A stretch of 31,348 nucleotides of DNA, from the NCBI GenBank assembly GCA_035350835.1, contig DAOPUX010000001.1, positions 1 through 31,348 on the forward strand, written 5' to 3'. Position numbers and translations under genes: made by a program. Origin of the DNA: Candidatus Woesebacteria bacterium. GTDB lineage: Bacteria; Patescibacteriota; Microgenomatia; UBA12405. The notes beneath the pieces are model-generated. The model was not told where the DNA came from, ran no database searches, and was given only the letters and a program-made list of their open reading frames with translations. Positions 8,473 to 11,772 of this stretch are shown piece after piece. Positions within the stretch are counted from its first letter, which is position 1, and each line of letters starts with the position of its first letter.

Positions 8473-9792
8473 TTAGTTATTTAACCTTTTTTCAAGCCAG
8501 GTGTCAATTTCATCGGATTTGAGACGGATTTGCTCCATAGTATCGCGGTCCCGAATAGAGACAGTGTTATCTTCTAGGGTTTGATAATCAACTACCAGAC
8601 ACCAGGGGGTGCCGATTTCGTCTTGGCGGCGGTATTTTTTGCCAATACTGCTACTGTCATCCCAGTCGACAGCATATTTTTGGTTTAACTGGTTAAAAAT
8701 AGTTTCGGCTTTGGTAATTAGTTCCGGTTTGTTGGCGGCTAGGGGGAGAATCGCCATTTTGTAAGCGGCAATTTTGGGGTTAATTTTAAGATAGGTTCGG
8801 ATGTCTCCGGTTGAAGTGGTTTCTTCTTGGTAGGCATCAAGCAGGAGAAAAAAGAAGCTGCGGTCAACTCCGCCGGAAGTTTCAGTTATCCAGGGGATAT
8901 ATTTTTCTTGAGTTTGAGGGTCGGTATAGGAAAGGTCTTGTCCGCTAAATTTGGCATGTTGTCCAAGATCGTAGTCAGATCGCCAGTGAATTCCTTCCAT
9001 TTCTGCCCAACCCCAAGGAGCTTGGTATTCAATGTCAAAGGCTTTTTTGGCATAGAAAGCCAATTCGTCTTTTTGATGTTGGCGGAAGCGGAGGTTTTTG
9101 GGATTATTAAAATATGTTTGATACCAAGCCATGCGAGTTTCTTTCCAGTATTCATACCATTTATCCATTTCTTTGGGATGGACAAAATATTGAATGTCCC
9201 ATTGTTCAAATTCGCGGGTGCGATAAAGAAAATTTTTAGGAGTAATTTCGTTTCTAAAAGCTTTGCCAATTTGGGCAATACCAAAGGGAATTTTTATGCG
9301 GGTGGAGTCAACGATATTTTTGAAATCCAAATAAATGGTCTGGCAGGCTTCACCCCGGAGATAAGCATGTTGTTTTTCGCCCTCGATAACACCAATTTCG
9401 GTTTCAAACAAAATATTATATTTTCGACCTTGAGTAAATTGACCACCACAATCGGGGCATTTGCTGGGGTCGTCAAGAAGATCGGGGCGAAAACGTTTGT
9501 GGCATTTTTTGCATTCAACCATAGTGTCGGCAAAATTTTTGACATGACCTGAGGCTTGCCAGACGGTGGGGTGAGTGATGATAGAACCATCAATGCCGAC
9601 AATATCGCGGCGGCGGACAACATTTTCCTGCCACCATAAATTCTTCCAGTTAAGTTTCATTTGGGAACCGATAGGGCCGTAGTCATAAAAACCTTGGACA
9701 CCTCCGTAAATTTCTGAGTTTTGAAAGATTATTCCCCGACGTTTGCAGAGACTGACAATTTTGCTAACAAGATCGCTTTGATTAGTCACCAT
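8473..9792 (-). CDS. glyQS: Glycine--tRNA ligase, homodimeric (GlyRS-1) type
   Basis: KRRGIIF, YDYGP, CxxC...CxxCGG insertion, PFGIAQIGKAFRNEI, REFEQ, GGVDR, IGKKYRRQDEIGTP and RDRDTMEQ motifs. Preceded by a glycine T-box. The GTG at 9789 is an alternative start. Confidence 0.93.
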   Translation of the reverse strand: MVTNQSDLVSKIVSLCKRRGIIFQNSEIYGGVQGFYDYGPIGSQMKLNWKNLWWQENVVRRRDIVGIDGSIITHPTVWQASGHVKNFADTMVECKKCHKRFRPDLLDDPSKCPDCGGQFTQGRKYNILFETEIGVIEGEKQHAYLRGEACQTIYLDFKNIVDSTRIKIPFGIAQIGKAFRNEITPKNFLYRTREFEQWDIQYFVHPKEMDKWYEYWKETRMAWYQTYFNNPKNLRFRQHQKDELAFYAKKAFDIEYQAPWGWAEMEGIHWRSDYDLGQHAKFSGQDLSYTDPQTQEKYIPWITETSGGVDRSFFFLLLDAYQEETTSTGDIRTYLKINPKIAAYKMAILPLAANKPELITKAETIFNQLNQKYAVDWDDSSSIGKKYRRQDEIGTPWCLVVDYQTLEDNTVSIRDRDTMEQIRLKSDEIDTWLEKRLNN

Positions 9793-9795
9793 ATA

Positions 9796-9931
9796 TCCTT
9801 AAAAATTAATATTAATTTTTAGGGACGAAAATTTCTTTCCGCGGTTCCACCCTATTTGACAGATTATTTTTGAACATCCGTCCACTTTATAAATTTTCAA
9901 CTATCGAAGTGCCTTCTTCGTTCGTAGTTGA
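9796..9931 (-). promoter_or_regulatory. Glycine T-box riboswitch, ultrashort Stem I, probably acting on translation
   Basis: Minus strand: Stem I TCAACTA-CGAA-CGAAG-[AAGGCA]-CTTCG-A-TAGTTGA (9931-9897). Stem III GACGGAT/ATCTGTC (9882-9858). T-box AAT-AGGG-TGGAACC-GCGGAAA-GAAA-TTTTCGT-CCCT (9856-9821). Alternative hairpin 9825-9796 covers AAGGA just before the glyQS start. Confidence 0.88.
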
Positions 9932-9944
9932 TAATAATAGGTAT

Positions 9945-9953
9945 ATTTTACCA
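9945..9953 (-). promoter_or_regulatory. Extended -10 promoter (TGgTAAAAT) for the T-box/glyQS leader
   Basis: TG-n-TAAAAT on the minus strand about 13 nt upstream of Stem I. No recognisable -35. Confidence 0.55.
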
Positions 9954-9972
9954 TCAAAGAACAGTGATAGGA

Positions 9973-11772
9973 TTATTCAAATAGATATATTTTCTGATTT
10001 TGGTTGTCGATAAAAGATATTTCTGCTTTTTGAGGATAGTGAAAAAATTCCAATCCTGGAATTTTTCTGGTCTCATCAAAGTTTTTGATATTTACATTCC
10101 CTACCCAGCGATAATATTTGTCTGGGACACTAAACCGTAGCCTATCATTAATCGTTTGTTGGGGAATTTTAGTAATATCTTGAATTTGAGTGAGATTTAG
10201 TCCCCAGTCAGACATTGATCTGGGGGCCATAAATGCTTCAATAGCGGCTATTTGGTTTAATTTAGGGACAATATTAATTTGATATTCTGGTTTGTATCTA
10301 TTAAATAGATAATTCCAATCCCAAATTAATTTCCACTGGTTATTGATTTTTTGGAAGATTATGTTGCTTTTATTTTCGAGAGGTCCATATCGGGTTTGGT
10401 AGGTGGTATTGAGCACTCCCGTAACAATATCTTGATCGAATTTGATAGAAGTTATATTTGATTCGATACTTCTGGTGCCAATTTTATTAAGAAAATTTTC
10501 ATAAGAATTTATAAAGTAGTCTTCGTTCATTAAGTTTCGTTGGTGTAGAGATATAGACCTATAAAGCTCTCGATAATTTCTGGTATTAATAAATCTAGTA
10601 GTGCTCTCTATGGTTCCTTGATATGGTTGTTTAATAACAGAAGTGTAATAGAAAGGAATGTTTAAAATAATTAAAAGATAAATTAAAAAAGGTTTTTGCT
10701 GCAAACAAATAGTAATAATAAGACAAAAAGTAGGAATTATTGGCATTAAATATCTTGGAAAGAATGGTATAAAGCAATTAATTAATATAAATGATAGTGA
10801 AAATAGACACAGATAAAGAGTTAATTTATTTTTGTTTTTAATAGAAGTAATTAGTAGGACAATCAGGAGTAGTAGTCCAGCCGTTAGCATTGGGGACCAG
10901 TCACCAAGCGTGCCAGGTTGAGCCCCAGCCCAAAATCCTTGATAACGATTTATTAAGATACCCTTGAGTTGATTAAAATAATCTATATGACTATTACCTT
11001 GTCCAATATAAAATCTGATAGGCTTTTCATGAAGTCTTAACCATGGAATTGGATTTGGGTGGTAGATAAAGTAGGATATAAAAGAAAAACCGTAGCCTCC
11101 TAAAGTGCTAAAAGCATAAAGTAGTATTTTTTTAATTTTTTTAGTTTTGGTGGTTAAGATAAAAATTAGACCAATTAAAAATATCAAGGGAGAATAAACG
11201 CCTATCTTGCATCCGGTGGCAATACCTAAAAATATTCCGGCAAATATTAGTTTTTGAAGATTATCTAATTGAAGATATTTAAGAAAAAATAAAAGATGAA
11301 CCAGAAAAAAGAACATTAAAGGCAGGTCAAGCATGGTTTCTCTGACTTGGGTAGAAATAAAAGGAGATGTAGCCATGAGAAGTAGTGTAAGGAGAATTGT
11401 GTGGGTGTTTTTTTGGAAAAATATTTTAGAAATTAAATGTAAAATAATAAAAGATGAAAGATAAAAAATAATGCTTATTATGTAAGGATTGCTAAAAAAC
11501 CGTTCAGCTAATCCATAAAGCAATTTGGCAAAGGGTGGAACTTCGTAATTGATATTAAATGGATTTTCACCGAAGGCTAGCCTGTAACCAACAAATTTAT
11601 ATAAATCTCCATCACCTATACCGCGAACACTGTTGGGAATATTCCATTGGGAGTGGTAATACCAGTTTTCGTAGTATTCAGGCTCATATTTGTAAAAAAA
11701 TATCTGTCGGGAATAATAAAAAGTTAAAGAAATAAAAATCAGAATTAGTGTTTTTATAATGTTGTTTTTCAT
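9973..11772 (-). CDS. GT-C (ArnT/PMT-like) polytopic glycosyltransferase with a C-terminal NTF2/MecA_N-like soluble domain
   Basis: First ~375 aa contain many TM helices, an acidic first external loop (GDGDLY, NYEVPP), and ETMLDLP, ATGCK and PRYLMP segments. The C-terminal ~220 aa include YRELY...YQTRYGPL...QWKLIWDWNYLF. Confidence 0.62.
   Translation of the reverse strand: MKNNIIKTLILIFISLTFYYSRQIFFYKYEPEYYENWYYHSQWNIPNSVRGIGDGDLYKFVGYRLAFGENPFNINYEVPPFAKLLYGLAERFFSNPYIISIIFYLSSFIILHLISKIFFQKNTHTILLTLLLMATSPFISTQVRETMLDLPLMFFFLVHLLFFLKYLQLDNLQKLIFAGIFLGIATGCKIGVYSPLIFLIGLIFILTTKTKKIKKILLYAFSTLGGYGFSFISYFIYHPNPIPWLRLHEKPIRFYIGQGNSHIDYFNQLKGILINRYQGFWAGAQPGTLGDWSPMLTAGLLLLIVLLITSIKNKNKLTLYLCLFSLSFILINCFIPFFPRYLMPIIPTFCLIITICLQQKPFLIYLLIILNIPFYYTSVIKQPYQGTIESTTRFINTRNYRELYRSISLHQRNLMNEDYFINSYENFLNKIGTRSIESNITSIKFDQDIVTGVLNTTYQTRYGPLENKSNIIFQKINNQWKLIWDWNYLFNRYKPEYQINIVPKLNQIAAIEAFMAPRSMSDWGLNLTQIQDITKIPQQTINDRLRFSVPDKYYRWVGNVNIKNFDETRKIPGLEFFHYPQKAEISFIDNQNQKIYLFE

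Follow-up and report, generated by a model that had tools for sequence, protein, structure and literature searches.

A minimal glycine T-box predicted in the glyS leader of a Woesebacteria bacterium

How small can an RNA be and still tell which tRNA it has met and whether that tRNA is charged? The question is raised by the leader of a glycyl-tRNA synthetase (GlyRS) gene in DNA from Candidatus Woesebacteria; the whole stretch of 31,348 nucleotides that was analysed is called the window here. Structural work from 2013 to 2020 established that T-box riboswitches recognise tRNA in a multivalent manner, combining the anticodon either with the tRNA elbow, which is gripped by a long Stem I, or with a latch formed by Stem II. 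To our knowledge, every described class of T-box has a distal elbow platform on Stem I or a Stem II with its IIA/B element, and the leader described here has neither.

The leader is best read as a glycine-specific T-box riboswitch that controls the initiation of glyS translation, a reading to which a probability of about 0.8 can be attached. Binding of tRNA, discrimination between charged and uncharged tRNA and the regulatory outcome are predicted from sequence, structure, covariation, gene context, a matching tRNA and distribution. A first-pass annotation had proposed a minimal glycine T-box without either stabilising module, and this proposal is supported by the downstream gene, which encodes a GlyRS, and by a canonical discriminator half. 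A covarying natural leader with neither element would be a natural experiment on the minimal RNA that reads tRNA identity and charging. It measures about 150 nt from promoter to start codon, and its sensing part roughly 110 nt.

Layout of the leader

The leader lies on the minus strand, in a 180-nt spacer that separates, on a reading of the sequence, the stop of the upstream open reading frame (9973) from the start of a 439-aa open reading frame (AUG 9792). Its parts and the gene it precedes are the following.

9953-9945, minus strand: probable extended -10 element, TG-g-TAAAAT, from reading the sequence
9931-9897, minus strand: ultrashort Stem I of 35 nt, which folds (-9.5 kcal/mol alone)
9913-9911, minus strand: specifier GGC, a glycine codon, in the apical loop of Stem I, followed by the purine A9910
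9896-9883, minus strand: single-stranded linker of 14 nt between Stem I and Stem III, from reading the sequence
9882-9858, minus strand: Stem III, 7 bp with an 11-nt loop, which folds; a conserved AA (9857-9856) comes after it
9853-9821, minus strand: antisequestrator, or T-box discriminator core, from the Rfam alignment and covariation of helix A2
9825-9796, minus strand: sequestrator hairpin, present in minimum-free-energy folds
8473-9792, minus strand: glyS, a dimeric-type glycine--tRNA ligase of 439 aa, with its AUG at 9792-9790

The glyS product scores 564.7 bits against NCBIfam NF003211 (cut-off 312) and 462.6 bits against TIGR00389, and contains the Pfam class II core and anticodon-binding domains. 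The open reading frame upstream of the leader (9973-11772, minus strand) encodes a 599-aa multi-pass membrane protein resembling glycosyltransferases; its Pfam domain, PMT_2, is of the dolichyl-phosphate-mannose mannosyltransferase-like kind.

Stem I is built from two helices. The lower one has 7 bp (UCAACUA with UAGUUGA) and the upper one 5 bp (CGAAG with CUUCG), closed by the apical loop AAGGCA. Between them lies an asymmetric internal loop, CGAA opposite A, at the site where relatives have a K-turn. The last five bases of the linker that follows, AAGUG (9887-9883), form the purine string next to Stem III, which corresponds to the RRRxG motif. Since only 14 nt, five of them in the purine string, separate Stem I from Stem III, there is no room for Stem II, and both Stem II and the IIA/B pseudoknot are absent from 9896-9883. 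The first-pass description of the short stem, its loop with GGC followed by A, the 14-nt gap and the 7-bp Stem III was confirmed at these positions. The Stem III loop of the window copy reads GUUCAAAAAUA.

The discriminator has the sequence AGGG-UGGAACC-GCGGAAA-GAAA-UUUUCGU-CCCU. Helix A1 pairs AGGG (9853-9850) with CCCU (9824-9821), the 7-nt T-box bulge UGGAACC occupies 9849-9843, and helix A2 (9842-9825) carries a GAAA loop and, at its base, a G9842.U9825 wobble. According to a review, the hallmarks of a T-box discriminator are RRRxG before Stem III, AA after it, a 7-nt bulge composed of UGGN and ACC, and a G.U pair at the base of A2 (PMC7583486). All of these are found in the leader.

At gathering thresholds, Rfam has no match anywhere in the window. 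When hits are listed by E-value instead, RF00230 aligns to 9984-9818 with 49.8 bits (E = 4e-10), short of its 93-bit gathering threshold. As the first-pass annotation had expected, it is mainly the 3' half that is matched: Stem III and the antiterminator align with confidence, and the Stem I of the model is mostly deleted, from 92 positions to 15. The assembly (431 kb, 72% complete) contains no other T-box match. Compared with shuffled sequences, the fold of the leader has z = -3.1.

Several features thus place the leader among T-boxes: a discriminator with A1, bulge and A2, a cognate specifier followed by a purine, a match to the discriminator base, the flanks of Stem III and an exclusive sequestrator. 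The window copy lacks a K-turn at the base of Stem I, a long Stem I with a platform and a score above the Rfam threshold. Two features of the actinobacterial ileS type, a specifier in the terminal loop and sequestration of the Shine-Dalgarno sequence, are present; Stem II with its S-turn and IIA/B are absent.

A start of transcription far upstream, revealing a conventional long Stem I, would change this picture, and such a hidden Stem I was considered and ruled out. The upstream open reading frame ends at 9973, 42 nt before Stem I, and the promoters of relatives abut Stem I. Only the -10 block is conserved in that region. Perfect or near-perfect sigma-70 promoters of relatives end 5-7 nt before the start of the model match; two of these leaders (L063 and L071) have TTGACA-16-TATAAT and a third (L037) has TTGACA-17-TAAACT. 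The same order of promoter and then Stem I is visible in most other leaders too. The window copy shares with close relatives a GTAAAATAT block before Stem I, and transcription is predicted from the sequence to start near 9938, about 8 nt before Stem I. A simple promoter scan makes no call at this site because a good -35 element is missing.

Contigs from two sludge metatranscriptome libraries (9565-9898 and 9745-9895) contain glyS and leader and do not reach the upstream gene, which is weak evidence on the transcript because the contigs lack true RNA ends and such libraries may contain DNA. Both contigs stop at 9895-9898, directly 3' of Stem I. The stop could be a processing site, under-coverage of the 5' end or an effect of assembly.

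Ligand and regulatory output

No tRNA-Gly gene is among the 19 tRNAs that ARAGORN found in the 72%-complete assembly of the window, so the ligand was taken from a relative in the same genus. This relative (G012), which bears the leader, encodes tRNA-Gly(GCC) with the acceptor GCGGGAA/UUCCCGC, U73 and no encoded CCA. Its anticodon GCC complements GGC, and UCCA at its 3' end complements UGGA of the bulge. The A in the bulge does therefore match U73, as had been claimed for TGGAACC in the first reading of the DNA.

The proposed switch would work as follows. In the OFF state, UCCCU (9825-9821) would pair with the Shine-Dalgarno sequence AAGGA in a long AU-rich hairpin, so that the ribosome could not load. 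Uncharged tRNA-Gly(GCC) would form two helices with the leader: its anticodon would pair with GGC in the apical loop of the very short Stem I, and the UCCA at its unoccupied 3' end with the UGGA in the T-box bulge. In the resulting ON state, CCCU would be withdrawn from the sequestrator and the Shine-Dalgarno sequence freed. Charged tRNA-Gly would be excluded by a steric clash at the basal G.U pair of A2, the mechanism known from solved T-boxes. We infer that a codon-anticodon helix made only of G-C pairs and a 3'-end helix suffice for this.

Folding energies are given for both states. The minimum-free-energy fold of the 3' part is A2 plus the sequestrator, at -13.7 kcal/mol (OFF), and the antisequestrator fold reaches -9.0 kcal/mol (ON). 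Because the OFF fold is 4.7 kcal/mol more stable without ligand, OFF would be the default state, and the pairing and stacking of tRNA would have to supply about 5 kcal/mol.

The sequestrator has 13 pairs, is AU-rich, and includes two G-C pairs and one C.A mismatch. UCCCU in its 5' arm uses the 3' strand of A1 a second time, and the last bases of its 3' arm are AAGGA (9800-9796), 3 nt before AUG 9792. The 3' end of 16S rRNA was not found in the assembly of the window, and relatives were used instead; in five genomes of the genus it reads ...GGAUCACCUCCUU (also given as ...CACCUCCUU; ...CCUCCUU). Since AAGGA is complementary to it, AAGGA is a genuine Shine-Dalgarno sequence. In the relatives that were read, the spacing to the AUG is 4-7 nt rather than 3 nt.

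In the Shapirobacteria family, which includes the window copy, every member carries AGG(A/G) within the 3' hairpin arm and immediately ahead of the start codon. Two leaders (L053 and L054) have a different A1 strand (AGAG or GAGG), with concerted changes in both its partner and the 3' hairpin arm.

A very improbable alternative is that the 3' hairpin terminates transcription, with or without a sequestering role as well. Beyond the Shapirobacteria family, most related leaders do end in terminators, and the window copy has a run of five U in its 3' arm. This run, however, is inside the stem and not after it, the G-C pairs number only two, and the hairpin ends at the Shine-Dalgarno sequence close to the start codon, a position that AGG(A/G) shares in every member of the family. 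No U-tract follows the hairpin, and a terminator scan of the leader gave no call; on that negative scan the terminator reading was rejected for the window copy. The competing hairpin over the Shine-Dalgarno sequence, without a U-tract, is thus borne out, and sequestration is the output adopted here.

Outside the family, leaders with an equally short Stem I and the discriminator continue into GC-rich hairpins with 5-7 U (for example L063, L066, L067, L069, L071, L076, L170 and L182). The terminators of L063 and L071 were missed by the simple terminator scan, and folding showed both clearly. Short Stem I elements with classical terminators are likewise found in other Microgenomatia and other Patescibacteria; across Patescibacteria, where this architecture is widespread, a terminator is the commoner output. 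With a Shine-Dalgarno hairpin in the family and terminators elsewhere, one sensor architecture is joined to two kinds of expression platform, and sister lineages would wire the same sensor to a transcriptional or a translational output.

Conservation, variation and loss

The GlyRS loci of 40 relatives were examined, and the leader was found in only some genomes of the genus. Seven orthologous leaders make up an alignment (alignment A2, not to be confused with helix A2), from which a covariance model, R1, was built. In this alignment, 98.3% of cells are paired on the proposed structure, compared with at most 50% after the 3' partners are slid. Both sides change in 14 of the 25 pairs, including all four pairs of upper Stem I. 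Helix A2 shows compensatory changes in five of its seven pairs and keeps the G.U pair invariant, and AAG-G of the purine string is also invariant in the seven leaders.

A larger set of 39 leaders agrees with the structure: 24 of 25 pairs covary with 95.5% of cells paired, both helices of Stem I covary, and so do all six modelled pairs of Stem III (99.6% of cells paired), although these pairing counts are inflated because the alignment was fitted to the model and leans towards the structure.

Conservation of GGC in orthologous leaders was a point on which the first-pass annotation could have failed. The loop triplet is GGC in 38 of 39 leaders. The exception, in one half of a tandem pair, is GGA, which also encodes glycine. 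The base 3' of the triplet is A in 35 leaders and the base 5' of it is U in 30 (of 39 in each case). These triplets were read from the model-based alignment; minimum-free-energy folding of the first 48 nt gave noisy loop calls. The usual context, U-GGC-A, would by analogy resemble positions 33-37 of an anticodon loop.

Within the genus, model R1 finds exactly one copy in each of 15 genomes out of 38. It also finds copies in 33 of the 132 genomes of the order, and matches in 13 of 150 other sampled genomes of the class. A second model, R2, matches 44 of 151 sampled Patescibacteria genomes, that of the window included. With R1 the window copy reaches 120.9 bits, a mid-range score for the genus. 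Its sequence occurs in sequencing runs from activated sludge, wastewater and digesters.

The window copy departs from its relatives at the base of Stem I. A K-turn consensus, NNN-GA-N ... N-GA-G, is present there in 33 of 39 leaders. The window copy has UAC-GA-A ... A-UA-G, with U for G at K-turn position 2n, a change unique among the 39, and it can form a continuous 7-bp helix with a CGAA bulge in place of the K-turn. A contig from a separate wastewater run (X15) covers 9200-10116 and differs at one position only, 9733, which is within the coding region; the variant is therefore real and not an assembly error. The structure first described for this leader holds, with two corrections: Stem I does not rest on a standard K-turn, and the hairpin includes the C.A mismatch.

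In a GlyRS tree, the leader is missing at four to six places in the family, and well-supported branches force at least two changes. One row (L053) was marked as having none though its leader exists and was missed by the pattern. The row paired with the gene of the window (L006) has no leader. Loss at several places in the genus indicates that the switch is dispensable.

Nine glyS loci of the genus that lack the T-box leader (L009, L010, L011, L012, L014, L017, L018, L021 and L024) have no Shine-Dalgarno sequence, and their TATAAT box is separated from the ATG by 5-7 nt only. The glyS mRNAs of these loci are thus probably leaderless, such a start having replaced the 150-nt riboswitch leader.

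The damaged K-turn and these losses allow an improbable reading in which the window copy is a decaying relic that no longer responds to tRNA and whose hairpin merely sets the level of glyS. The change at position 2n is found in no other leader, the leader has been lost repeatedly in the genus, with a promoter that nearly abuts the start codon in relatives, and the tree partner L006 has none. Decay is hard to reconcile, however, with a copy in which GGCA, the purine string, Stem III, the bulge, the G.U pair, A1 and the sequestrator are all intact, whose R1 score is ordinary for the genus, and whose sequence recurs in the separate run X15. Published streptococcal glycyl T-boxes, moreover, include members without a K-turn. 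A functional glycine T-box is the preferred reading of the window copy.

Relation to known T-boxes

The glycine T-boxes of Bacilli, which precede glyQS, glyQ or glyS in B. subtilis, G. kaustophilus and O. iheyensis, provide reference structures (4LCK, 4MGN, 6PMO, 6POM; PMC7583486). The window leader shares with them GGC followed by a purine, the absence of Stem II, a regulated GlyRS gene, the K-turn (deviant in the window copy), a flexible linker, a Stem III with its purines, a UGGA bulge for U73 and the G.U pair at the base of A2. In Bacilli, however, a long Stem I presents the specifier in an internal loop and reaches the tRNA elbow, on which its two interdigitated distal T-loops are stacked. 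The Stem I of the window leader ends at the specifier, which is in the apical loop. The output differs as well, being a terminator in Bacilli and in the sister lineages, and a Shine-Dalgarno sequestrator here.

Translational T-boxes of actinobacterial ileS genes are known from M. tuberculosis (6UFG) and N. farcinica (6UFM) (Sherwood et al. 2015 via PMC7583486). They share with the window leader a truncated Stem I on a K-turn (deviant here), the lack of an elbow platform, and translational control by a mutually exclusive antisequestrator and sequestrator. In contrast to its 14-nt linker, they have a Stem II with S-turn and IIA/B of about 70 nt, which is essential where Stem I is truncated (PMC7583486). 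They also respond to Ile in Actinobacteria, rather than to Gly in Patescibacteria. The window leader is thus a combination of what the glyQS class lacks (Stem II) with what the actinobacterial ileS class lacks (distal Stem I).

The best match outside Patescibacteria in the scan is the GlyRS of Dictyobacter (Chloroflexota), at 57% identity. The T-box of the Dictyobacter glyS gene also has a GGC specifier, no Stem II and a score below the Rfam cut-off (60-64 bits), but differs in its full-length Stem I of about 100 nt, its distal-loop motifs and its GC-rich terminator. The two Dictyobacter leaders (L133 and L134, about 90-330) have a UGGG bulge, not UGGA.

Other T-boxes of the genus and phylum, in front of proS and thrS (for example L200, L175 and L190), share the short Stem I with K-turn, the codon in the apical loop and the discriminator. 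Their codons are CCC for proS and ACU or ACC for thrS, and unlike the glycine leaders they have an extra hairpin region between Stem I and Stem III. Each of those examined closely (L200 and several thrS leaders) has a terminator at its end. Leaders of ileS elsewhere in the phylum look similar to the proS leader L200. A short Stem I in the proS, thrS and ileS leaders makes the short stem a local style; only the glycine leaders also lack the middle domain, which is consistent with the published glycine rule on Stem II.

The proS T-box L200 (G012:C15:266739-266870, minus strand) has the loop UAUCCCG (CCC then G), a UGGU bulge, a middle hairpin and a terminator. Leaders with a UGGU bulge also stand before genes for a CsaA-like tRNA-binding-domain protein (N-terminus MATYDDF[VA]KLD) in L058, L059 and L073; their loops contain CCCG in the first two and AAUG in L073. 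The thrS leaders are the other common T-box in the phylum sample (L175, L176-L179, L183, L184, L187-L193 and L196). They have a UGGA bulge and, where readable, a short Stem I with ACU, ACC or ACA and an extra hairpin before Stem III.

RF00230 matches are found in 58 of 132 genomes of the order. Two exceed the cut-off, neither of them before glyS: L198 (G055:C1:124586-124846) at 111 bits and L199 (G081:C61:3063-3346) at 100 bits. These only T-boxes in the order to pass the cut-off are canonical long-Stem-I forms of about 260-285 nt that precede non-synthetase genes, so long and short T-boxes coexist in the lineage.

Can so short a stem bind tRNA? Without Stem II, a truncated Stem I binds tRNA barely detectably, and transcriptional T-boxes need the elbow contact (PMC7583486); tRNA binding by the leader is for this reason not guaranteed. 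Glycine T-boxes, on the other hand, do without Stem II owing to the strong GGC:GCC pairing (PMC7583486).

The leader might accordingly be a working T-box that is not truly minimal, its grip on the tRNA coming from a partner that has escaped recognition: a K-turn-binding or other protein, contacts of the A-rich linker or the Stem III loop, or GlyRS itself. Besides the poor affinity of truncated stems, this unlikely possibility draws on a conserved motif, UGGA...CAU, in the enlarged Stem III loop of many relatives, and on the K-turn kept by 33 of 39 leaders, which could recruit a protein of the L7Ae type. It is weakened by the window copy, which has neither the loop motif nor a standard K-turn and has kept all else, and by the precedent of glycine T-boxes that already dispense with Stem II. 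A minimal leader that relies on its two short helices is the reading retained.

A wider proposal, whose chances look about even, is that an unannotated class of T-boxes spread across Patescibacteria senses tRNA-Gly by two short helices, a kissing contact with the U-GGC-A loop and an NCCA-UGGN pairing. Neither elbow contact, Stem II nor protein would be involved, and the class would act co-transcriptionally where it has terminators and at equilibrium where it has Shine-Dalgarno sequestrators. If true, two views would fall: that Stem II is indispensable once Stem I is truncated, and that a transcriptional T-box cannot do without the elbow platform.

In the full-text literature that was covered, most of it outside subscription journals, no T-boxes are described in candidate-phyla bacteria, nor is such a glycine variant. 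The transcriptional set of TBDB comes from RF00230, and its translational set from actinobacterial ileS leaders only. The minimal glycine leaders fall short of RF00230. Standard annotation misses the T-boxes of candidate-phyla-radiation bacteria because the Rfam threshold is not reached, and tRNA-sensing riboswitches would be common in these bacteria with genomes below 1 Mb. So compact a module could also serve in engineered tRNA-responsive switches.

Minimal glycine T-boxes also occur in tandem, in other Microgenomatia genomes and in some cases before genes other than GlyRS. Three such pairs are L065 (1336-1469 and 1501-1619), L062 (1326-1459 and 1501-1616) and L074 (785-895 and 951-1082); the two copies of L074 read GGC and GGA.

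The enlarged Stem III loop of several leaders contains the motif A-N-UGGA...(C)AU-A. It is present in L032, L037, L039, L041, L047, L049, L050, L054, L062 and L064 and in the tandem copies of L065 and L074, spans different families and is absent from the window copy. The motif repeats the UGGA of the T-box bulge.
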